Of a stretch of DNA of 64,000 nucleotides, positions 34,237 to 63,489 are shown in pieces (position 1 is the first letter of the stretch; every line of letters starts with the position of its first letter). The position numbers and the translations under genes were made by a program. The notes under the pieces are model-generated. The model ran no database searches, was not told where the DNA came from, and worked only from the letters and a program-made list of their open reading frames with translations. The stretch is from the NCBI GenBank assembly GCA_045803545.1, contig JBJMOW010000002.1, positions 448,001-512,000 on the forward strand. Reading direction: 5' to 3'. This stretch comes from Gemmatimonadaceae bacterium (lineage in GTDB: Bacteria; Gemmatimonadota; Gemmatimonadetes; Gemmatimonadales; Gemmatimonadaceae).

Positions 34237-34324
34237 GGACGGGTGGCCGAGTGGTTTAAGGCGCACGCCTGGAAAGTGTGTGTACGTTCATAGCGTACCG
34301 TGGGTTCGAATCCCACCCCGTCCG
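34237..34324 (+). tRNA. tRNA-Ser(GGA); probable prophage integration target
   Basis: Acceptor GGACGGG/CCCGTCC, anticodon arm CACGC-CTGGAAA-GTGTG, long variable arm, GTTCGAATC; integrase ends 86 bp downstream. Confidence 0.95.
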
Positions 34325-34410
34325 TTAACTCGTTGCGACCTAGCAGGTTGCGAAAAGCGCCGTATGCAGCGTCAAGCCAACGGGTTAGAACTGCATACGA
34401 AACGTATACG

Positions 34411-35976
34411 TTAAGCCGCATTTGACCCTCCAGTCTGTGATGGCTTTTTCCCCCCGATCAGGGCCGTAATTGCGCTGTCCGCAGCTGGCGAGCGCTCCTC
34501 GAATACGGGGCTCAGCTCACTCCTGGCGGCCAGATCTTCCGCTATTACCTCATTGGCCCCATCCACCCTTGCGAAGGCTTCCGCCGGCGACTCCGGACCA
34601 GTGTCCACTTCCGGACGTTCGTTCTCGCCGCGCAGCTTGGCCTTGAAGTCGCGCGCTGCACGCCGGCCGATCCGGTTCTCGCGCTCCGCGTATACGCCCT
34701 TCGGAACGGTCGTCGAGCTCCACCCGCCCAACGCCTTCAATCCTTGCTCGCCCAGCTCCTCCTCGAGCGCCAGGTCGACCGGTAACCGGCGGAGACCGTA
34801 CGCGCCCATTCCCTTTACGTAAGCGATGCCTGCCTTCGCGCGGACCGCGTGAAAGGTCTTGATCACCCACTGCCTCGAGACGTGCTCGTCGGGTCGCATC
34901 TTCTTCCCGAGGCGATGATCGACGCCGTGTTTCCGGCCGAAGATCCTGCCCGCCGGGAAAAGCGGATAATCTTTGCCGGCCGTCAGATACTGCTCCTCGA
35001 GCGGGCCCAGGAATCCCGTCAGATACGCATCGACGACGATCCGCATCCCCTTTGTCAGCTCGACGATCTCTCCACTCTTGTGGCCGGCGCCGTGCACGTG
35101 CAGCTCGCCGAACTCGGCCTTGTCCAACTTGAGATCGCTCCGCATCGCGCGCGATGTCTGACCCAGGCGGAGCTCCGCGGTCACGTAGATCAGGATCGCG
35201 ATGCGAGGATCGACGAACGGTGCCGCCTTCACGATCTTCCGCATCTGCTCGAGCGTGAAGCGTGGCTGATACGGCTCCGGATCTCGCTTGGCTCCGGTCA
35301 AGCCGCGACGGAACGCGCGCAGGTCGTCCTTCCATTTGACGGTGCCCGAAGCGGTCCTCTCAGTATCGATCTGCGCCGCGTGCAGCGGAATGAGTTTCTT
35401 CTTTCGCAGCCAGTTGATTGCTGTGATGAGTCTCGACACGGTGGTGTCGGCCGAGCGTGAAGTCTTGTGACCTCGACGCACGAGATCAGACACACGAGCG
35501 CGAATGAGCTTAGTCCACATCGAGTCGTCGATCGAATCGACCGGCGTGTCCGCTCCCCACACACTGACGGCGAAGCGCAGCGATCTCACGAGCTCGTCGC
35601 GGAACGGGAATTTGTTTGGATACTTTCCCGTTTCCTTATCGGTGATCAGCGTCTCGACCTCGCCGATGGTCACGCGCTTCGCCTGCGGTCCGGATACTGG
35701 CAGCGTCCCTGACAGCTGCTGCGACTTCCGCATCGCCTGCTCGACAGCCCACTGCGCGACGTCCGGATTCACGGAGCCGTCCGCATTCCGGAGTGGCTTA
35801 CCGAGCTTGTTGTTCTTCAAGCTCTCGCCGCCCCAATTCTCGACGCCGGTCCGCCACCACCGCAAATAAATTCCTCCTTGCCGGTGGGGATTTTCCTCGA
35901 CGACAACTTTGTTCGGGAACACCCCGACCTCGGCCGACCACTTCTTCGGCGCCGCAGATTTTCTCGCGCGCGTCAT
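34411..35976 (-). CDS. tyrosine recombinase (prophage integrase)
   Basis: Catalytic-like series ELRLGQ, GHKSG, YGLRR, GGW, KGVY; adjacent to tRNA 3' end; ATG 35976 overlaps the upstream stop. Confidence 0.85.
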   Translation of the reverse strand: MTRARKSAAPKKWSAEVGVFPNKVVVEENPHRQGGIYLRWWRTGVENWGGESLKNNKLGKPLRNADGSVNPDVAQWAVEQAMRKSQQLSGTLPVSGPQAKRVTIGEVETLITDKETGKYPNKFPFRDELVRSLRFAVSVWGADTPVDSIDDSMWTKLIRARVSDLVRRGHKTSRSADTTVSRLITAINWLRKKKLIPLHAAQIDTERTASGTVKWKDDLRAFRRGLTGAKRDPEPYQPRFTLEQMRKIVKAAPFVDPRIAILIYVTAELRLGQTSRAMRSDLKLDKAEFGELHVHGAGHKSGEIVELTKGMRIVVDAYLTGFLGPLEEQYLTAGKDYPLFPAGRIFGRKHGVDHRLGKKMRPDEHVSRQWVIKTFHAVRAKAGIAYVKGMGAYGLRRLPVDLALEEELGEQGLKALGGWSSTTVPKGVYAERENRIGRRAARDFKAKLRGENERPEVDTGPESPAEAFARVDGANEVIAEDLAARSELSPVFEERSPAADSAITALIGGKKPSQTGGSNAA

Positions 35977-40407: not shown

Positions 40408-40921
40408 CTATCCTGCCCTCCGCTCCGCTCCCCGAACAACGGCACCTGTCGTTTTGCGATGGACAGCTCCGTGATGCCGCGTGCAGAGCCATCTCACTTG
40501 CAACGGCTTGCCGTAATCCTCGTGATGCGCGTGCGCCCGCGACGCGCCGCACACTTCCGTCAAAACTGCTCTGCGCAACGGAACTATGCAGAAGCAGCCG
40601 TGCGAGATTACGCGCTCGCAGCTTTTCGGGATCGCGGACGTACTTCGGTGACCGCGCGTAGCGCTCACGCCTGCGCGCGAGCGCTGCCAATGTCGGCGGC
40701 TGATACTGGGAAGGGTGGTGGCCGAGCTCGTGCCAGCATTCGCGGCACATGCTTCGGCGTTTGCCCTTGCCCTTCGACGGAAACTCCGCGAGTGGCAATT
40801 CCCAGTGACACTGGCTACACACCTTCGTCGCCAGGGTAAAGCGGGGCGCGGGAGTCGAACCCGCAGCCTCCAGGTTGGCTACCTGGCGTTCAACCATTTG
40901 AACTTCCCCCGCAGGTTGCAT
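40408..40921 (-). pseudogene. frameshifted zinc-finger/HNH-like phage gene
   Basis: KVCSQC...MCREC...RARNLAR in one frame; EVCGA..HAHHEDYGKPLQVRWLCTRHH in another frame. Confidence 0.6.
40840..40912 (-). tRNA. degenerate tRNA-Gly(GCC)-like element
   Basis: GCGGGGG-AA-GTTC AAATGGTT GAAC-G-CCAGG TAGCCAA CCTGG-AGGCT-GCGGG TTCGACT CCCGC-GCCCCGC-T; A8, A33 and G7:G66 are non-canonical. Confidence 0.65.
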
Positions 40922-45965: not shown

Positions 45966-46892
45966 TCATGCGGCGAGCGCCTCGCTAATTCCCTGCATCG
46001 TGTCGTCGTTGTAGTCCTCAGCTCCCGGGATCTCGGCGTTCCAGACCGCGCCACAGATGCCCGCTTCTGCCTGGAGACGGAACGATCTCTCCATCCACTC
46101 GCTCCGGAGTGACGGATCCGGAGGAACCAGCGCGAACTCGGTGTTCCAGATCGGCTTGTCGACCCCGTGCATCAGCATGACAGATCGGAGCGTCGCGATC
46201 TCGAGCGGCAATTCGTCCGGCGTCTGCGGGTAGCTGTGAAAGGCGATCACATCGCAGGAGTTGCCGCCGCCGGCGGACAGATAGCGATCGGCGAACTGGA
46301 CCCCGCGACTCAACCCCAGCTCCGTCATCGAGGGAGAGAGGACGATCGCGCCCGGCTCGATCTCTTTGATGATCTGGTACGCGACAGCGGACTGCGCTGC
46401 GAGCTGCTCGACTGTGCCGCTCCAGTAGCCGGCGACACCGGGCTCGTTCCACAGCTCCCAGTATTTGATGCGGCCGGCCGACTGGGTGACGACGTCCCGC
46501 ACGAACTGAGTCCACGCCGCGGCAAGAGGGACTTTCGAATTCGGATAGCACGCAGTAGATGGCGGCTCCCCGAACGTGAACATCACCTGCGCGCCGACTC
46601 GCTCCGCATATCTGAGATTCGCCTCGAGCGCGGCCGCGTCGGCGACCATCTTCCACCACACCGCACGACTATCCCACAGACGCAGTAGTCCGAAGTAGCA
46701 GGTGACCGGGCAGCACAGCGAGCCATCGTCGAGTACCCAATCGCCTTGGACCATGTGACCGAAGAACGTCGGCCCGATCGACTTCGACCGGAGCTCGCGT
46801 GGCCAATCCAGCTTCTCCGCCTTACAAGCCATTAGGATGAACGCAGCTGCAGCGCGGCCGCACTCGAGGAGAAACTTCCGCCGCTCACTCAT
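45966..46892 (-). CDS. clan GH-A glycoside hydrolase (GH39/GH5-like), putative Tat lipoprotein
   Basis: WELWNEP, AFHSY, IWNTEF; N-terminus SERRKFL...LMAC; ATG 46892. Confidence 0.78.
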   Translation of the reverse strand: MSERRKFLLECGRAAAAFILMACKAEKLDWPRELRSKSIGPTFFGHMVQGDWVLDDGSLCCPVTCYFGLLRLWDSRAVWWKMVADAAALEANLRYAERVGAQVMFTFGEPPSTACYPNSKVPLAAAWTQFVRDVVTQSAGRIKYWELWNEPGVAGYWSGTVEQLAAQSAVAYQIIKEIEPGAIVLSPSMTELGLSRGVQFADRYLSAGGGNSCDVIAFHSYPQTPDELPLEIATLRSVMLMHGVDKPIWNTEFALVPPDPSLRSEWMERSFRLQAEAGICGAVWNAEIPGAEDYNDDTMQGISEALAA

Positions 46893-47434
46893 GCGTCTGC
46901 CCGGATGTCGAGGAGATACTCGATCCTCGCCATGCCGTAGAAAGCCATCTCCGCTTTCCACAGATTCTTGAATTCTTCGTACTGATCCGGCCAAACTGTC
47001 TGGCAACCGAGACTCCCAGTCGACGTATAGCCGCCCTGGTGGATCTCGATGTCGAACATCCCAGTCTCGCGGATTCCGTTGTCACGCAGTACGGTCACCG
47101 GCTCGGCTTGGATCAGGCATGGATACTCGTGCGGCGTGCCGGCGTGATGCGTCCACGGCTTCATTGTCCAGACGCCAGGCTCGAGGACCGCCAGGCGGTC
47201 GCCTTGCTTCGACGGATCGGTGTTCGCGTTAAAAGTCTTGAACACTCGAGGGGAGAGAACGATGATCGCGTCATCGTATTGGCCGCGATCGTTCTTGCCG
47301 GCGAGGCCCATCGAGTCGCGGAAGTAGCCGCGCTGCCCAATGATGATGGTTTGATCGGTGACGCCGTATGCAGCGAGGATCTTCCGCGCGTCAACGATCG
47401 AGAGCTGCGGCCGCGCAGGCGGGATCATGCTCAC
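46889..47434 (-). CDS. putative endolysin (Cys/His peptidase, YkuD-like motif)
   Basis: YDDA, NTDPS, IHQGG...SLGCQT; follows the holin. Confidence 0.65.
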   Translation of the reverse strand: MSMIPPARPQLSIVDARKILAAYGVTDQTIIIGQRGYFRDSMGLAGKNDRGQYDDAIIVLSPRVFKTFNANTDPSKQGDRLAVLEPGVWTMKPWTHHAGTPHEYPCLIQAEPVTVLRDNGIRETGMFDIEIHQGGYTSTGSLGCQTVWPDQYEEFKNLWKAEMAFYGMARIEYLLDIRADA

Positions 47435-48115: not shown

Positions 48116-48658
48116 CTAGACCGAGTGCGGATCCGCAATACCGCGGGGGAACTTAGGGGTTCGGAGCAGCTCTTCTCTAGCCGCGCGCTTAACTGGAAAA
48201 CTGTCGAACACCGAGAGCGCCTGTTTCCGGTTGGCGATACGTTCAGCCATTATAGCGGTCATCAGATCAATGACGTCCGCCACGTCGATGGCCTCGGGGC
48301 CGACAAGTGTATGGTGTGGAATGGAATGCGTTCCGGTCGCCGCCCTGAGCCCGGTTGGGGCACCTGTCTCATCGACCTCCCAGCAATCGGCATGCAGCAC
48401 TGCGTAGTGATCCGCGTCCAGCACCTTTTCCTCGATCGCGACTACGACGTGCATTCCATGATCGGGCAAATGAAAAACCCGATGGTGCGCCTCGGTCGCA
48501 GCGGTGACAACATCGCCCGTCTCCACGCGAACATGCTTGGTAGTCGGGAATAACTGTCGCGCTGACCCGCCGTCTTTCTCGGCCGGGATCGCTTCGTCGG
48601 CGCCTAGATTCTGCGCGGCTCGCTGGACTTCTTCTGCGCTTCCTTTGGGCAGTGGCAT
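48116..48658 (-). CDS. hypothetical protein downstream of the tail-tip gene
   Basis: 180 aa ORF, ATG 48658 just after the tail gene stop. Confidence 0.65.
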   Translation of the reverse strand: MPLPKGSAEEVQRAAQNLGADEAIPAEKDGGSARQLFPTTKHVRVETGDVVTAATEAHHRVFHLPDHGMHVVVAIEEKVLDADHYAVLHADCWEVDETGAPTGLRAATGTHSIPHHTLVGPEAIDVADVIDLMTAIMAERIANRKQALSVFDSFPVKRAAREELLRTPKFPRGIADPHSV

Positions 48659-48660
48659 CG

Positions 48661-51600
48661 TTAGACTGGTTTGATGTTGTGATTCAGAATGCCGGCCGCA
48701 ATGAACGTCTGCGCTTTCTCGACGGTCAGCTTGACGACCGGTCCTAAGTCCCACGACCTGATGACGTGCTCCACACGCGCGCGCGGGCTGCCCATCAGCA
48801 CCTGTCCGGGGAAAAGCGTTTGCGCCTGACGCCAGGCATCAGCCCCTGCGAGTTTTAAGCGATGCTTGGCCGAGCATACGATGTGACGGCCGTCTTCGAA
48901 CCAGATTTTCGTTCGCGCTTCCATGAGGTAGGCGGATGCCGCCTTGACTCTGAAAGCCCCGAAATGGTCCTGCCGGAATTCCGGAATGGTCCAGACGTAG
49001 TCGCCGACCTCGATCTGGTCGGCGCGCTTCTCGTGGAGATGCTTCCCGTGCCGGTCGCAGACAAGAATCAGCGTCTCCGGCGCGACGCACGTGGGACCGC
49101 CAGTGCCCGAGCCTGTTCCACTTCCTCCGGACGTTACGATTTGCCCGACGTAAAGGTGAGCCTGTTGGTTAGGTAAGTAATTGGGCTCGATCAGCGCGAA
49201 GTAGGTCGGCGATCCACCCCCGGCGATAGTTATATCATCTGTGTAGATGTAATTCTTGCCGGTAGCGTTTTGCGTACATGTCCCCGACCCATAGTCGACG
49301 ACCTTTTCGTTGTTCCCCGTGTCCCCGACTACGAGGCTCCAAGCGCCGATGCTGATTGTCGTGCCGCTTGAACTGACCGGAGTGGGCGAGCCGCGGTTCG
49401 CATTACTTATGACCTGCGCCGACCACGCGCCCGCTATTGCGGACGGGGCGTGCCGGAATGCACCGTCGAGGTAGCCGCTACTATGGAGCTGCGTGAAGCC
49501 ACGACTGCCGCCCGTTTTTTCGTTGGCTGTTGTGCGTTTGTACGTCGAGCCCTCGGGCACATCGTCAAAGATGTGGTGGCTAGTATTGAAGTGCGTGTTT
49601 AGAGCGTAGCCGCGCGAATCGACGTGCGACGAGTGTGATGTCAGTCCATCGTTTGTGGTGGATCTGCCGCCGTAATCGCCGTCGTCGAAAGGTCGCCCGC
49701 GTTTCACATGACCGGTGGTATCGATTTCCTGCCTCTGCGACGGAACGCTCGTGTGTATTTCGCTGAAGAGACCGGTGATCGTATCGGTGACGCGAAAGCG
49801 AATGAGCTTTGTACTTCTCAAATCCCGATTAACGACCTGGGCATAAGCGAAGGACGTCCCATCGCCGCTGTTGAGGAGCGTCTCTGCGGAGTTACTGATC
49901 TTGACGTAGATGGCCCATGTCAGGTTCGTTCCACCTCCGCCGGATCCTGCCACCGCGTTGAGCGTCAACGTTCGAGTTGTATCATCGGCTTCGGTGGCGC
50001 TCGGTGTGATGGTCGGAACCGGCGGTTTGAACACCACAGGCATTCCCGTCGTTGATACGGCTCCGCTCTGACCGACCCCAGAGATCGCGTCGAGGCCGCG
50101 AATCGCGACGATGAAATCCGTGCCCCAAAGATTCTTGCCCACTATGACGCCGACGGCCGAGACCCTGCCGGAGATCGGCATTCCGTTGTCGGTTAAGCCG
50201 TCGGCCGAGAATGAGAGGCGACGATCGGTGTACTGGTCGGTTAGGATCGTGACTGCGTCGCCCATTTTGAGCCACGGCCACATCAGGACGGTCTTCACCT
50301 TCCAGAGTCGGACTCCGGATTTCCATGCGCGCTGAAACTTGTCGGCCGAATAATTCGCCTCAGCCAGATCGTTCCACCTGCAGAAGTTGTCCGGGAACTC
50401 GAATACGTCGAACAGATTCGGCCGACCCCAGCCAGTGAGCTCGTCGAACGCCTCGTAGGTCGCTTGGTTCGTGAACTTTTGGGTGTCCGCCTGGTAGCCA
50501 TACTTCACGCGAACCGAAGGCATTCTCCGATCGGCGCCGATCGGAGTCTCGAGCGAAACGATATGGCGATCGTCCCATGTGGCGACGGAGACCTTATTCG
50601 GTGAGTAGATGTCGGCAAAATCGATTCGCCCTCTCTCCCACGTGATTATTCCGTCGGCGTGCAGGGCAACGTCCTGGATTATGTCGAGCGCTTTGACGCC
50701 GTCCGACGGCAGCGTGAAGGTGCCCGTGCGTCCCGTCGTCGGCGGCAGAATCCCGCGATACCGTGCTGGAACCGCCGACTGAACCCCGAGCAAATCGCTA
50801 TAGATCGCTGCGTAGTCCTGCCCCACATAAGCGGCACCCGTTCGCGTCGTTACGTCGGAGTGGATCTCGAAGGTGTCGCCGTTGACTGGCACCGTCTGGA
50901 GATTCGGATCCGCGTTGATGTCGAAGTGATCGTTGTTATTCGCAACGATGACGTAATCGATTCCGGCGGCGTTCCCAGTGACGCCGTGTGCACGGAAGCC
51001 GACCAGGCTCTGCCCGGTGAAAGGGTGTGATCCGCTCGTCGACGGAGTGACGCGATAGGTCGTGCCTGAGACTAGAGCGACGGTTGTCGCGGCCACTGTA
51101 CCCGACAGCGGATAGCGATACGTCTCGACAGCGGAGGGAATCTTTACACTCAGGCGATCGAAGCCCGAGACGAAGGTCATCTCCTCGGTGCCGTCCTGCG
51201 GATCCCGGTTCTCGAGTCGATAGCTATTCAAGAAAAGCCGCGTTCCGTCGCGTGTGTTGCGTGCGTAGACGTGCGCCTCGAGCGAGGAGGGCGCGTATGA
51301 CGATCCCAGGAGGGAAGCGAGATCTCGATAGTCTTTCCGGCCGGCCTTCAGGATCGGCAGCTTGAGCTCGCCGATCGAAGACTGTCCGGTCACGGGATCT
51401 GCGGTGACGGTCGAATCGAAATCCTTGAGATAGCGATACGTGTTGAGTGTCACGCGTTCGACCATCATCCACGCCTGAAGACTCGGCGTCGCGAACCGCG
51501 TGCCCGACGCCGGACCCGCAGTGAAGCTCGCGGTCAGGCGATACCAGATGAAATAGTTGCCGTTGACGAGGATAGTCCCGTCCTTTACTGCGCCGATGCT

Positions 51601-52776
51601 GGTCCACGGCCCGGCCGCAGAGACGTTAGAACCCTCGAGGGAGTAGGTGATCGACGTCCCGATCGGCTGCCAGTCGTCGAGGCGCACTTCGAGATCGTGC
51701 GTCGGCACTCCGCCCATGCTGAGAACGCCGACCCAGGAGCCGCTTGCCGCAAAGGTCTTCGCCTTCAGGTTGTGATAAGGCTGCTCCCACGTGCCGCCGG
51801 AATCCTGCGCGCGCTGTTTCGTCGTTGGCCGTCTGGCGATTCCCCACGAGCCGTTTGTAACCGCCTTCGCTCCATAGCCTGGCACGGCGCCCGCGATCAG
51901 GCGATCGTCGGGATTGTGGGTGAGATCGTTCGCGGCGAATGGCTGGAGCGTCGGGTTGTACGGGCCGCAGTTACGATTGGTGGCCCGACGATAGAACGCG
52001 GTCGTGTCGAACTGCGCGGCCGTAGCGTTGGCGACGCATCCGATCCACGCGCCCTGAAATCCGCGCCCCACAGGCTCGACCGAGATCGAGAGACCGCGAG
52101 GCATGTTGATGATGTGGCAAACACCCTTGCTGTCGATGTTGGGGTTTCTGAGCGCGGAGCCATCGTAACCCAAGCCGGTGTTCGTGTTCTGGAAGCCCGG
52201 GTGGATAATGAACCGTCGCTGTGTCTGCGAGGTGAAATCGATCGTGTATACGCCGCCGCCTGGCGTGATGCCGGCAGCGTTGGCTTTTACGTCGAACGGA
52301 TCCCCGATCGGAACGAGGTTCCAGTCGACGTCGTAGTAGCCGAGGCGCACTCGAAAGATTCCGTTCTTGTCGAACGTGAACGAGCTGCCGGTCGCTCCGA
52401 AAGTGGCGAGGTAGAGATCGATCGACGCGAGCTCGATCGCGACGCCCTGCGCGATATTGGGATTGAAGAAGAAATCGAGCGCGTATTCCTCGGATCCATC
52501 AACCGCATCGTGGAACGCGTGGCGGACCGTCGCCGTATTGGTCTGCGAGAAAATGGAGCTCGTCCCCGTCTGGGTTAAGGACAGCGCTCCGGAGTTTGCG
52601 TCCGCGGTGACATTCGTCTTGGTGCCCGCGTCCCAATCCGCTTTCGTCGACGCCTGTGCCGCTCGCGCCACGGCGAGGATGTCGACGTCGAGCTCCATGC
52701 ACGGGTTGAGGCGTTGGCATGCTCTAATGATCGAAGCGACTGAGCCCGCCGCCGGTATTCCTGGTAGAGTGGGCAT
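48661..52776 (-). CDS. large tail-tip / host-specificity protein with C-terminal Hint domain
   Basis: 1371 aa, beta-rich, two genes after the tape measure; ends GGPT-CVAPET...SAKH...TFIAAGILNHN-IKPV. Confidence 0.8.
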   Translation of the reverse strand: MPTLPGIPAAGSVASIIRACQRLNPCMELDVDILAVARAAQASTKADWDAGTKTNVTADANSGALSLTQTGTSSIFSQTNTATVRHAFHDAVDGSEEYALDFFFNPNIAQGVAIELASIDLYLATFGATGSSFTFDKNGIFRVRLGYYDVDWNLVPIGDPFDVKANAAGITPGGGVYTIDFTSQTQRRFIIHPGFQNTNTGLGYDGSALRNPNIDSKGVCHIINMPRGLSISVEPVGRGFQGAWIGCVANATAAQFDTTAFYRRATNRNCGPYNPTLQPFAANDLTHNPDDRLIAGAVPGYGAKAVTNGSWGIARRPTTKQRAQDSGGTWEQPYHNLKAKTFAASGSWVGVLSMGGVPTHDLEVRLDDWQPIGTSITYSLEGSNVSAAGPWTSIGAVKDGTILVNGNYFIWYRLTASFTAGPASGTRFATPSLQAWMMVERVTLNTYRYLKDFDSTVTADPVTGQSSIGELKLPILKAGRKDYRDLASLLGSSYAPSSLEAHVYARNTRDGTRLFLNSYRLENRDPQDGTEEMTFVSGFDRLSVKIPSAVETYRYPLSGTVAATTVALVSGTTYRVTPSTSGSHPFTGQSLVGFRAHGVTGNAAGIDYVIVANNNDHFDINADPNLQTVPVNGDTFEIHSDVTTRTGAAYVGQDYAAIYSDLLGVQSAVPARYRGILPPTTGRTGTFTLPSDGVKALDIIQDVALHADGIITWERGRIDFADIYSPNKVSVATWDDRHIVSLETPIGADRRMPSVRVKYGYQADTQKFTNQATYEAFDELTGWGRPNLFDVFEFPDNFCRWNDLAEANYSADKFQRAWKSGVRLWKVKTVLMWPWLKMGDAVTILTDQYTDRRLSFSADGLTDNGMPISGRVSAVGVIVGKNLWGTDFIVAIRGLDAISGVGQSGAVSTTGMPVVFKPPVPTITPSATEADDTTRTLTLNAVAGSGGGGTNLTWAIYVKISNSAETLLNSGDGTSFAYAQVVNRDLRSTKLIRFRVTDTITGLFSEIHTSVPSQRQEIDTTGHVKRGRPFDDGDYGGRSTTNDGLTSHSSHVDSRGYALNTHFNTSHHIFDDVPEGSTYKRTTANEKTGGSRGFTQLHSSGYLDGAFRHAPSAIAGAWSAQVISNANRGSPTPVSSSGTTISIGAWSLVVGDTGNNEKVVDYGSGTCTQNATGKNYIYTDDITIAGGGSPTYFALIEPNYLPNQQAHLYVGQIVTSGGSGTGSGTGGPTCVAPETLILVCDRHGKHLHEKRADQIEVGDYVWTIPEFRQDHFGAFRVKAASAYLMEARTKIWFEDGRHIVCSAKHRLKLAGADAWRQAQTLFPGQVLMGSPRARVEHVIRSWDLGPVVKLTVEKAQTFIAAGILNHNIKPV

Positions 52777-57982: not shown

Positions 57983-59310
57983 TAGAAGGGCATCGGCGCT
58001 GCGATGGCTTGGTAGATCCGGTCGCCGAAATAGTCATCGCCAGACTGCGTCGGATGAATGCCGTCGCTACCCGTTAAGAGGTCGGCATTCCCACTTCCGG
58101 TCGTAGCACCGACCTTACCCGTACCGGTGATGAATCCCAGCGTGTTCGCAACCGCGCTTGCCGAGACAATGGGATCGATAAAGAGATTCGGCCCGTTTGG
58201 GTCGCCAGCTAGGAGCGCAGCCTTCAAAGCATCGCGCATCGAAACCTGAAACGACGTCGGTGTCCCCGACGCAATCAGGTCTCCGATCACAATGAGTTTG
58301 ACATAGGGAAGCGCTGCTCTGATCTGCGCATAGAGCGTCGTCGCTTCCGCCTGGATCTGCGCAGCACTAAAAGCGGAATCGTTGCCGCCGCCCTGAATAA
58401 CGACAATCTCGGGCGAGTTGTTGATGACGTCGGTGACGACGCGTGACCTGAACGTCGGCTGAGTGACATTGAGGTAGCCAGCCCCGCCGATGCCGGAAGT
58501 CCAGGCATCGCGTGACCAGCCGAGCAGTTTCGTCGCCCGATCGACGAAGCCACTGATCTGCGCCGTCGCTCCCGTGCCATTTGTCTTGGAGTCGCCCATC
58601 CAGATCGAGCGCGGACCATCAGGGAGACTCGATGGCCAGAGTGTGTCGTTGGGACCGACGTTGAAGCCGCGGAATCCGCACTGGTTCGTGAGCTCGATCC
58701 GGATACGGCGGACAGCGCGGACGCCGCTGAAGTCCACCTTCTGCCAGTAGAGCGCGCCATCACCCGGAGGGCCAATGGTCGGAGTCGATGAGACGTACTG
58801 GCCGTCAACGAGGATTCGGAATGCAGCGTTACCCGAGATGCCGCGGGTGCCGAACTCGAAGACCGATCCGTCGAACATGGACTCGACGAACATGTTGCCG
58901 CCAGCCAGCGCGTTACAGTTGAACGAGCAGACCGTGAGCAGCGCGTTCGCCGCCTGCGAGACGACGTCCACCTTTCCGCCGGAGTACTTCCACGGAACAG
59001 CGGTGTTCTTGATCCACGTGCCGCTGCTGTTAACCGTGGCAGCCGTTGCGACCGCGCTAGCAATTGTACTCGCCGCGTTCGCCGTTCCCTGCGTCACGGT
59101 CGGCGGGGTCGCCATCGCTGGCGGGAGCCCGATCAGCCGCTGCATCGCGGGGAACGGTTGCATCGTTCCGAACTTGCTCGTCGCGAGTCTCCGCACGTCG
59201 AGCGACACGATCATGTCGCGGAAATCCTGCGCCGAGATCGAGCCGTCGGCCTGGCCGTCCTGAAAGAGCTGCGAGAGCAGTACGGCGATCTCGCGAAGTG
59301 TGTCAGGCAT
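57982..59310 (-). CDS. SGNH/GDSL esterase-domain protein in the head-tail module
   Basis: WMGDS, GIGGAGY, QGGGND, DGIHP. Confidence 0.85.
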   Translation of the reverse strand: MPDTLREIAVLLSQLFQDGQADGSISAQDFRDMIVSLDVRRLATSKFGTMQPFPAMQRLIGLPPAMATPPTVTQGTANAASTIASAVATAATVNSSGTWIKNTAVPWKYSGGKVDVVSQAANALLTVCSFNCNALAGGNMFVESMFDGSVFEFGTRGISGNAAFRILVDGQYVSSTPTIGPPGDGALYWQKVDFSGVRAVRRIRIELTNQCGFRGFNVGPNDTLWPSSLPDGPRSIWMGDSKTNGTGATAQISGFVDRATKLLGWSRDAWTSGIGGAGYLNVTQPTFRSRVVTDVINNSPEIVVIQGGGNDSAFSAAQIQAEATTLYAQIRAALPYVKLIVIGDLIASGTPTSFQVSMRDALKAALLAGDPNGPNLFIDPIVSASAVANTLGFITGTGKVGATTGSGNADLLTGSDGIHPTQSGDDYFGDRIYQAIAAPMPF

Positions 59311-60179: not shown

Positions 60180-61265
60180 TTACGCCAGCGCGTCTTTGGA
60201 AATGGCGAAGGCCTGCGGGTGTCTCACAGCGACGTCGATCAGTTGATACGACGTGAATTCGATCATGCCCTGCTTCTTCAACCGGAACGGATCCGCGACG
60301 ATCTCGAACGCGCCCCAGAAGCCGATGATCACTTCCGACATCGCGCCGAAGATGATCGGGTGGCAGACGGCGCCCGAGGTGCCCTTGACGAGATTCTTCG
60401 GGAGTTGGTTCGAAACGAGGACCGGGTAGTCGTTGATCGACTGATCTCCGTCGAGGATGAACCAGCCAGAGGTCGTCTGGCGATCGGTGATGCGCCAGCG
60501 GTCGCGAATCTCCGGGGTCGTGACGTAAGCCATCGTGTCTAGGTCGACGTCACCGTCAGCGACAGCGACGGTCTTCTCGAACGACGTCGTCTGGGGCCAC
60601 GTCGCGATCTGCCCGTTCGTGCCGAGCGCGATCGGGTTCGTGTTGGCCTGATTGAGGAGCCCGGTCGGCTGACCCGAAGCGCCTGATCCGTTCAAGGCCG
60701 CGAGATCGATCGTTGATGCGTGGACGCGAACGAGATCATTTCTCACGAGCTCGTCGACGGACGTTGAGACTTGCGACTGAGCGAGCAGCTGACGGGAGAA
60801 CGAGGTCGTCCCGATTAACTCCTTTGGCGCCATCGCCACCGAGTTGAGCAAGAGATTCGTGTCGCTGACGTCGGCGCCCGGGTTCTGCGTGCTCCAGGAA
60901 GCGGTAGCGACGCCGTTCCCTCGCGGGATCGCGAGATCTCCGGTCAGGCCTTCGAGGACCGTAGCGCCCGCGCGAATCACGATCGCGCGCTTTCTCAGCG
61001 CGTCGATGAACGTCCTCGCCTGCGTGAACTTGAGCTCCTGACCTTTCGTCGACGTCGCCGTGTCCAGCCCTGCGCGCATCGACATCGAGTAAGGAACGAG
61101 GAGCCCGCCGTGCTGGGGAGTGCGAGTTTTGGCGAGCTCGTCGGACACCTCGAACGCGAGCCCTGACTTCGCCCGCTTCCGCTCCGGATCATCTGCGAGC
61201 TGAGCGAGCGCGTCACCTAGACGGTATTCGCGCTCTTCTCTCGCGTTCAGTGTGGTGTCCGACAT
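60180..61265 (-). CDS. second HK97-fold major capsid protein
   Basis: SRQLLAQ, DLAALNGSG...PTGLLN, DPF, DVAVRHPQAF. Confidence 0.88.
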   Translation of the reverse strand: MSDTTLNAREEREYRLGDALAQLADDPERKRAKSGLAFEVSDELAKTRTPQHGGLLVPYSMSMRAGLDTATSTKGQELKFTQARTFIDALRKRAIVIRAGATVLEGLTGDLAIPRGNGVATASWSTQNPGADVSDTNLLLNSVAMAPKELIGTTSFSRQLLAQSQVSTSVDELVRNDLVRVHASTIDLAALNGSGASGQPTGLLNQANTNPIALGTNGQIATWPQTTSFEKTVAVADGDVDLDTMAYVTTPEIRDRWRITDRQTTSGWFILDGDQSINDYPVLVSNQLPKNLVKGTSGAVCHPIIFGAMSEVIIGFWGAFEIVADPFRLKKQGMIEFTSYQLIDVAVRHPQAFAISKDALA

Positions 61266-61362: not shown

Positions 61363-63489
61363 CTAGGCCAGCGCGTCCTTCATCGCCGAGAACGCGGCGG
61401 CGTACTTGACGGCGATTCCGTACATGGCGAAGGAGGTCACTTCGATCATGCCCTGTTTCTTCAGGCGATACGGATCGACGATGAGCTCCATCATTCCCCA
61501 GTCACCGACGACGGCCTGACTCCAGGCGCCGAAGATGATCGCCAAGCAGATACCGCTCGACGAACCCTTGGTGAGGTTGTTGGGGACCTGGGCGGACACC
61601 CAGCCCGGGTAACCATTGATCTCGCCTGGAACGCGTGCGCCGAGACCCTGAACCGCTCCGGTTCCGAGAACGTTGGCGTCCGACTTCTGCCACACCGGAA
61701 TGCCAACGGTGTTGGAGAGCACCTGCGCTTTCTTGAACGTGCCGCGCGTGGTCGGGTGCACCATGTACGCGCACGGCCACTGATCAGCGTTCGCAGCTGC
61801 GACCTGAGTTTCCAGATCGACGAGGTGCGTGTACGCCGGCGTCAGGCCGTTCGTGCCGCCGGCGACGGAACCGATACCTGACGTATTCAGGATTCCGGTC
61901 GGCTGGTTCGACGCGCCGGAGCCGTTGATGACGGCGAGATCGAGCGCGATCGCGTTGACGCGCGCCAGATCGTTACGCACAATCGAATCGACGTCGACCA
62001 CCGCCTGCGCGAGCAGCTGCCTCGAGTAGGAGGTCGAAGCCTGGATCGACTTCGGGTTGAGCGCGATCTGAGTCAGCGTCAGGTTGGAATCCGCGACGTC
62101 AGATCCGGGGTTTTCAGCGACCCACGTTGCGGTTGCGGCACCGTTCTGGGCCGGGAAGGCAACCGGACCCTGGAGACCCGCCATCAGGGTGACGCCGGCG
62201 TCGAACGCTGCCATCTTGTTGCGCAGCAGCTCGAGGAAATCACCGGGCACCGTGAACTTGAGCTCGAGACCCTTGGTGGAAGTCGCCGAGTCCAATCCAG
62301 CGCGTTGCTCCATCGGCCAACCGTTCTGGCGAGCCATGATCTCCCGCGCTCTCGCTTCCGAGGTGAAGGTCGGAACGAGGATTCCGCCATTCCGCTTGAT
62401 TCCCTGTGGGACTTTCTTCTCCAGGTCCTGGGCGATCTCGCGCTCGAATGACGCATCGACTTTCTTGCCCATCACGTCTTCGGCGTGCGCGAGAATCGCC
62501 CGCTGGAAGGAGTATTGCTTCCGCTCCTTGTCGGTGAGCTCGACAGCCGGCTTCCCTGTCGGTGCGCTGGCATCGCCGCGCTCCTGGAGCTCGCCCAGGA
62601 TCGAAGCGGCCGCGGAGTCGAGCGTGCGTCCCTCTTCGATCCACGTCGCCACTTTCTCGGCGGGGATCTTGTGCTTGGTGGCGAGTGAGCGGATTTCGTT
62701 CACTCGCTTGCGCTCGGCTTTGACGGCCTCGTCGCGATCCGCGACGGTGATCGCGGAGGGTTTGGATTCGGCCCCGTTATTCTCGGTAGCCGCGTTTGCT
62801 CCTGACATCGGATTGCTCCTGGCGGTGGCCTTCGGGGCCGTGATTGTGAGGTGAGGGAAGTGCTTGCGGAGCGCGGCGATCGCTGTCTCCGTGTCTTCGG
62901 GCGGCGCGTCCCCCGCGCTCCTGCCCACGCCCACCGTGACATCGGCGGGAACTGCAACGCTCGAGGCTTCCATTGGGAGCCAGCGAGTGACGCGAACTTC
63001 GGGAACCTTGTTCTCGCCTTCGACTTCGCGCGTTTCCGTCTCGAGGCAGCGGTAGCCGACCGAGATCCGCTTTCGGATCCCGTCGAGCATATCGCGCCGG
63101 AGATCCTGCGCGGTCGTTCGTTGGCTATAGCGCACCATGCCGCGCATCACGCCGTCTTTGTCGACCGAGATGTCTTCGACGATTCCTTCCTGCTGTCTCG
63201 TGTCGTGGCCATCGAGGAAAGCCATTCCGTCCCTCGCATAGGAGAGATCGACGGCCTCCTTCGTGTGCACGAGCACTTCGTCGTAGAACTCGCCGTCCCA
63301 CCAGCTGTAGCGCCGGACCGGCGTCTCGCTCGAGATCGCGATCGGGACTCGCTCGTCGACGGTGCCGTCAGCCGCGCGAGTCGCAGCGACCTGGGCGAGC
63401 TTCTCCCGATCGACGACGAAAAGCATGTCGCGGTAGAAGACCTCGGCCTTTCTTTTCTCTTCGGATTTCTGTTCGGACTTTGAAGCCAT
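61363..63489 (-). CDS. prohead protease - scaffold - major capsid fusion
   Basis: Protease motifs AISSETPV, FLDGHD, ISVGY, EASSVAVPAD; coiled linker; HK97-type capsid domain. Confidence 0.92.
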   Translation of the reverse strand: MASKSEQKSEEKRKAEVFYRDMLFVVDREKLAQVAATRAADGTVDERVPIAISSETPVRRYSWWDGEFYDEVLVHTKEAVDLSYARDGMAFLDGHDTRQQEGIVEDISVDKDGVMRGMVRYSQRTTAQDLRRDMLDGIRKRISVGYRCLETETREVEGENKVPEVRVTRWLPMEASSVAVPADVTVGVGRSAGDAPPEDTETAIAALRKHFPHLTITAPKATARSNPMSGANAATENNGAESKPSAITVADRDEAVKAERKRVNEIRSLATKHKIPAEKVATWIEEGRTLDSAAASILGELQERGDASAPTGKPAVELTDKERKQYSFQRAILAHAEDVMGKKVDASFEREIAQDLEKKVPQGIKRNGGILVPTFTSEARAREIMARQNGWPMEQRAGLDSATSTKGLELKFTVPGDFLELLRNKMAAFDAGVTLMAGLQGPVAFPAQNGAATATWVAENPGSDVADSNLTLTQIALNPKSIQASTSYSRQLLAQAVVDVDSIVRNDLARVNAIALDLAVINGSGASNQPTGILNTSGIGSVAGGTNGLTPAYTHLVDLETQVAAANADQWPCAYMVHPTTRGTFKKAQVLSNTVGIPVWQKSDANVLGTGAVQGLGARVPGEINGYPGWVSAQVPNNLTKGSSSGICLAIIFGAWSQAVVGDWGMMELIVDPYRLKKQGMIEVTSFAMYGIAVKYAAAFSAMKDALA

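Follow-up and report, generated by a model that had tools for sequence, protein, structure and literature searches.

Within the window, by which we mean the whole 64,000-nucleotide stretch of Gemmatimonadaceae DNA analysed, a 151-bp left att repeat (34266..34416) overlaps a tRNA-Ser GGA gene and delimits a prophage of 41.5 kb, the right att copy lying 41,539 bases further on, outside the window (G000:C6). Integrase-, terminase-, portal- and capsid-like genes were recognized by eye in the ORF translations, and Pfam added a tail-tube match. The repeat at this tRNA-Ser(GGA) is unusually long, and the prophage looks complete. Its early region holds a tRNA-Gly(GCC) gene (40840-40912, minus strand; ARAGORN), and its tail proteins have Gly-rich ends. 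Also on the minus strand are tandem capsid-like ORFs (60180-61265 and 61363-63489), a 361-aa copy and a 708-aa protease-capsid-like fusion, the copy sharing motifs with the C-terminal half of the fusion as judged by eye; a GDSL/SGNH hydrolase-domain protein amid the head-tail genes (57985-59310; PHROG 9703, "head decoration"); a glycosyl hydrolase domain gene within the lysis region (PF11790; 45969-47006), the N-terminal stretch of which appears by eye to be possibly twin-arginine/lipoprotein-like; and a probable endolysin, called by position, whose sole match is PHROG 3000, function unknown (46892-47434).

The tail module is closed, after a tape-measure-like gene and a 288-aa gene, by an ORF for a 1371-aa tail-tip or baseplate-hub protein (48661..52776, minus strand, as are all of its features given below). 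The original prediction had named it a tail-tip protein, and residues 30-897 (50086..52689) bear this out with a baseplate-hub fold that resembles T5 pb3, lambda gpJ and Mu gp44; Foldseek matched the region to the T5 tail tip (7ZHJ, E 2.7e-13), and VIA-align matched it to 9G8S (Z 18.3, rmsd 3.5, 289 residues aligned). An FN3/Ig-like domain follows (residues 916-1014, 49735..50031), with middling Z scores of 8.8-9.1 to FN3/PKD domains; a gp27-like hub fold and then FN3-like domains is the order of gpJ-like tail tips. The protein belonged to no PHROGs family, a single-sequence PDB search gave no real match, and three queries of annotated phage genomes yielded no match and no cultured model phage. 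Scans of genome contigs gave no match, and no locus came out of single-protein scans of viral sequences. Residues 1092-1215 (49132..49503) form a mobile tip domain, after which a Gly-rich stretch or another domain always comes; it had no Pfam or PDB sequence match and no strong Atlas match, and its predicted structure has a pLDDT under 50.

The terminal Hint domain

The tip domain runs into a Gly/Ser/Thr linker (49090..49131), the last residue of which, Thr1229, is the -1 residue of a 138-aa Hint domain (48676..49089). The domain begins at Cys1230 (A1; codon 49089-49087) and ends at His1366-Asn1367 (Asn codon 48678-48676). Directly after Asn1367 stand the four residues IKPV (48664..48675; computed residue mass 437.6 Da) and a TAA stop; Lys1369 at +2 (codon 48672-48670) is the acceptor proposed below. 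The coordinates and the architecture agree with the original prediction, and the linker, the CSAKH motif and VVKLTVEKAQTFIAAG occur in the ORF translation as it had written them; it was also correct that +1 is Ile and that there is no endonuclease, for which 138 aa leave no space. The remaining diagnostic positions are Ser1302 (B7), His1305 (B10), Lys1349 rather than Asp at F4, and Gln1356 rather than His at F13.

The profile and structure checks suggested with that prediction came out in favor of a Hint fold. An AlphaFold2 model built from a 60-row alignment had a mean pLDDT of 91.8, and its best Foldseek match was Tetrahymena BIL2 (6Y75, E 1.4e-10, TM 0.75-0.77), followed by DnaB mini-inteins and the C. 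thermocellum BIL 2LWY; the horseshoe beta fold of the Hint superfamily was recovered with TM scores of 0.75-0.86 to BIL and mini-intein structures. The family profile matched 4O1R (9.9e-15) and 2LWY (6.9e-13) in PDB. On its own the sequence scored 28 bits for Pfam Intein_splicing, where the cut-off is 35.8, and matched neither PT-HINT nor Hint_2 in Pfam at E 0.1; PT-HINT was matched by 14 of the 60 alignment members at E 0.01.

That this 1371-aa prophage tail-tip protein carries a real C-terminal Hint domain is confirmed. An assembly artefact was ruled out by the homologs and by run X1, possibly the source sample, where one 850-base contig covers 48459-49308, including the domain and both junctions, with zero differences. 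Four DNA runs of patchy coverage showed neither a Hint-less variant nor a joint. Recent foreign insertion is not supported: GC and GC3 are 0.60 and 0.76 in the domain versus 0.60 and 0.73 in the remainder of the gene, and the closest Hints by tree (P0004, P0005 and P0006; support 99) sit on the closest tips. Across 401 genomes of the phylum, matches occurred only in G000, where no second Hint was found, and in G072.

Conserved residues and the C-flanking lysine

With the last 312 aa as query, 367 cluster representatives were found at E 0.001, and the best 150 of the 367 were examined. Among 151 stored proteins, 142 matched the Hint profile in 154 rows; we kept 139 complete domains and left out 15 rows (8 records whose start lies within the domain, 6 rows in which 3 domains were hit in pieces, and 1 cut-off record). 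Cys1 and a His/Ser-Asn end belonged to the filter, and no left-out row was a whole domain lacking them. Domains with a tail of 15 residues or less were counted as terminal (101 of 139) and the other 38 as internal.

The complete domains have His at B10 without exception (139/139), Ser/Thr at B7 in 127, and a His-Asn end in 138, the remaining one having Ser-Asn; in most, few residues only follow the His-Asn. A Cys, Ser or Thr at +1 is present in just 13. F4 is Lys/Arg in 100, with Asp absent from its common residues, and F13 is His in 100 versus Gln in this prophage copy. The -1 residue, Thr here, is Gly in only 41, and the 12 residues ahead of Cys1 have a median Gly content of 58%. Some proteins of uncultured phages bear database names like "Hint domain containing protein". 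Nine low-complexity proteins (P0010, P0012, P0017, P0023, P0047, P0059, P0070, P0102 and P0152) have 2-3 tandem Hint copies, with Lys at +1 after most of them.

Lys stands within +1 to +3 in 131 of the 139 relatives versus the 7% expected from host composition, a count to be read with the bias toward matches with Lys at +2 that comes of a query containing IKPV. At other His-Asn sites in the same proteins, Lys is next in 2 of 52. Internal copies have it at +1, the nucleophile's own position, in 24 of 38. When 29 domains of other subfamilies reached via the tip domain were added to the 101 terminal ones, the resulting 130 tails comprised 116 with Lys, none with Arg alone and 14 with neither; all 14 contain Ser, Thr or Cys (9.0 expected), although most come from one related group and the count is not independent. 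The 20 Gly tails of Hint-less proteins divide otherwise, with Lys in 7, Arg alone in 7 and neither in 6. Because Arg alone is found in 7 of 20 Hint-less tails versus 0 of 130 Hint tails, charge alone does not explain the Lys; in the sequences compared, basic residues are frequent at such ends, yet the one that follows a Hint domain is Lys. A weaker control partly opposes this signal: Lys is among the last five residues in 28 of 76 other retrieved proteins, 8 of them truncated Hint records, a sign that C-termini are Lys-rich anyway.

Tips with and without the Hint domain

Eighteen orthologs of the N-terminal part were compared, and P0157 alone bears a Hint; it is of PT-HINT type, occupies the equivalent site and precedes TKLV. 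The ortholog nearest in sequence (83% over 1012 aa) carries a different tip and no Hint. The Hint-less ortholog P0156 ends YVGQI-17 aa-IKPQ, where the prophage protein has YVGQI-16 aa-Hint-IKPV, and its end (...GGSA-IKPQ) matches the predicted rejoined end, GGPT-IKPV. It fits an empty allele with equal flanks, whereas other Hint-less ends differ; it may be a remnant of Hint deletion, as P0184 and P0185, which end SHNYP, suggest by their sequences. These two and L013:3391-6414 are Hint-less tips that end in a Gly-rich stretch, His-Asn and 2 residues, like imprecise Hint deletions.

The 66 distinct relatives of the tip domain (71 before duplicate removal) include 39 that end in a Hint, 17 that end in a bare Gly tail and 10 that end otherwise, including 1 with a cut-off Hint; since the search profile A7 contained part of a Hint, 39 of 66 should not be read as a frequency. 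On a tip tree of 105 columns, on which subfamily labels are crude, the Hint-less label needs 11 changes, 5 of them forced by well-supported branches, and several Hint subfamilies occupy one site behind the tip domain. In G072, tip and Hint are joined to a different N-terminal part. By these sequence comparisons the Hint is optional in such tail-tip proteins, and we infer that a tip-plus-Hint cassette moves by C-terminal module exchange. The tip domain also occurs on short proteins (L009:3837-4541 and L019-L022), most often followed by a small gene that is translationally coupled to it; the L009 copy lies ahead of ejection-protein-like genes.

A 180-aa gene (48116..48658, minus strand) starts 2 bases past the tail-tip stop, and Pfam, PHROGs and a further search found no family for its product. 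Small genes are coupled behind the tip gene at six Hint-less loci and in G072, and the product showed no significant likeness to the G072 neighbor or to the small coupled genes of the other loci. Because such genes also occur in Hint-less loci, the product need not be a Hint partner, and it is the tip domain, rather than the Hint, that the gene probably accompanies.

Relation to known Hint domains and proposed fate of the tail tip

As defined in PMC4031507, type A BILs such as 2LWY share with the prophage domain the Hint fold, Cys1, a block B Thr/Ser-x-x-His (here Ser1302 and His1305), a terminal His-Asn, and the absence of a +1 nucleophile (here Ile) and of an endonuclease. The prophage copy differs in lying on a virion protein, in its 4-residue C-flank with a conserved Lys, in Lys/Arg at F4, and in scoring under the Pfam cut-offs. 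Type B BILs, as defined in the same source, and Hedgehog Hints lack the block G His-Asn, which is present here, and class 3 inteins have Cys at F4 and no Cys1, whereas here F4 is Lys and Cys1 is present. Class 1 mini-inteins (Npu/Ssp DnaB, gp41-1) are alike in size, fold and blocks A, B and G, and P0156 would be a Hint-less allele with matching flanks unless it is a deletion remnant; unlike them, the prophage Hint has neither a +1 Cys/Ser/Thr nor an F4 Asp, and it lies in a low-complexity protein end rather than a conserved enzyme core (for terminase and reductase inteins, see PMC3556154 and PMC5259590). To the PT-HINT domains of polymorphic/umbrella toxins (PF07591, 8W20) it is linked by a profile match (2.2e-12) and by the PT-HINT-type domain at the P0157 site, but no toxin or other domain lies behind it.

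The BIL2 domain of Tetrahymena BUBL1 (6Y75, 6TMM), the best fold match, also has no +1 nucleophile, although among Hints of about 18% identity the rank of a predicted fold says little on mechanism. BIL2 is zinc-activated, its acceptor Lys is in a folded ubiquitin-like domain, and according to PMC9200820 it sits between ubiquitin-like domains and after an RGG motif. The prophage Hint shares an acceptor candidate in the C-flank (Lys1369), but this is in a short tail; the -2/-1 residues are Pro-Thr rather than Gly-Gly, and no ubiquitin-like domain was seen. A search of the open literature found no description of a Hint ending a phage tail protein. The Hint on this phage tail tip is a type-A-BIL-like variant in a setting that this literature does not describe.

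The original prediction had called the domain non-splicing, which is not established: in the account of PMC4031507, type A BILs with His-Asn can splice, though cleavage dominates, and PMC8616854 reports that BIL2 splices through a Lys isopeptide. Its thioester chemistry at the N-junction fits catalytic residues that appear intact in the sequence, but the conserved +2 Lys and the His-Asn before a tiny tail had been overlooked. The fold, the residues, their conservation, the optional presence and the match to the end of P0156 are observed. From these sequences, the model and the BIL2 analogy, we tentatively propose, at slightly under even likelihood, that the tail Lys captures the thioester, Asn cyclization drops the Hint and an isopeptide-capped tip remains. 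Cys1230, helped by Ser1302 and His1305, would convert the Thr1229-Cys1230 bond into a thioester; attack on it by the Lys1369 side-chain amine would give a stable branched isopeptide; and cyclization at His1366-Asn1367 would release the 15.7-kDa Hint, to which the tip would stay branch-tied until then. The mature tip would be a Gly linker capped by a 4-residue peptide, near the end of Hint-less alleles. The Hint would thus be a type-A BIL-like module inserted in a Gly-rich tip end, with the tail Lys standing in for the absent +1 Cys/Ser/Thr, and an optional, self-erasing passenger that accompanies the tip domain in exchanges of C-terminal modules between phages; a benefit might be, for example, shielding of the tip until assembly. 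Capture by Lys would account together for the Lys, the His-Asn and the short tail. Branch formation is stated in PMC4031507 to make Asn cyclization tenfold faster in Mxe GyrA. Gln at F13 in this copy counts against capture, although the same source describes F13 His as dispensable in some inteins, as does the predominance of cleavage among BILs.

It is conceivable, though somewhat less likely than not, that a widespread phage virion Hint family without endonuclease splices via a nucleophile moved from its usual place, with Lys at +1 to +3 (Ser/Thr/Cys in side branches) accepting the N-part, and so makes up a further mechanistic intein class that would mark tail tips with isopeptide scars and could hitchhike in Gly-rich ends. 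If true, this would place the BIL domains, a long-standing puzzle, in a concrete context; phage tail maturation would gain a self-processing step alongside the S74 chaperones, and protein splicing with a Lys acceptor would extend beyond ciliates. A domain of 138 aa that forms site-specific isopeptide bonds with no need of ATP would then also be a useful ligation tool.

An unlikely but serious alternative is that the domain only cleaves, the thioester being hydrolysed and the Asn cyclizing separately, so that the tip would end at Thr1229 and the Lys would be structural or tune a pKa. Reviews describe mostly cleavage products from BILs (PMC4031507, PMC7664689), and 6 of the 20 Hint-less tails do without a basic residue, which argues that a capped end is not needed. 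However, removal of the Hint requires the N-junction only, so the retention of His-Asn before four residues wants a reason, and Arg never substitutes for Lys in the 130 terminal tails. Distinctly unlikely is the proposal made for type A BILs in PMC4031507, in which Asn would cyclize first and the freed alpha-amine of Ile1368 would attack the thioester to give a seamless GGPT-IKPV, the Lys holding or activating the peptide. This would explain both the His-Asn and the match to P0156, the possible empty allele, but a freed tetrapeptide would tend to diffuse off, and neither the preference for Lys over Arg nor the Ser, Thr or Cys of Lys-less tails is explained. Capture by Lys, cleavage alone and this aminolysis all leave a mature tip without the Hint.

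Conjugation in trans, in which the activated Gly-rich end would pass to a different virion protein, to a small molecule or to an amine on the host surface, had been raised in the original prediction as covalent attachment to the host or a partner, and we consider it improbable. The end concerned lies outermost on the tail tip, the Gly-rich N-flank recalls ubiquitin activation, and BIL2 is reported in PMC8616854 to conjugate to other proteins; but the tethered Lys would compete and is left unexplained, His-Asn would not be needed, Hint-less siblings exist, and the -1 residue is Thr here and mostly not Gly in the relatives. A cyclic trimer cross-linked via the tail Lys was dropped by reasoning, since every chain would then terminate on a peptide that is released.

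That the domain is a folding chaperone, or inert cargo that stays on, is very improbable. Its position equals that of peptidase S74 domains, which detach from tail fibers and spikes and help them fold (PMC7824862), and like S74 it would be a C-terminal self-detaching domain on a tail protein; but S74 has another fold and Ser-Lys chemistry, Pfam found no S74 match in this protein, and the Hint is optional. Of the self-removing chaperone originally suggested, self-removal is likely from the residues, whereas an essential chaperone role is weakened by the 17 of 66 distinct tips without a Hint, the single Hint among 18 N-terminal-part orthologs, a label that changes at least five times on well-supported branches, unrelated Hint subfamilies at one site, and the 38 internal family copies within other proteins. 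Against inert cargo speak the invariant catalytic residues.
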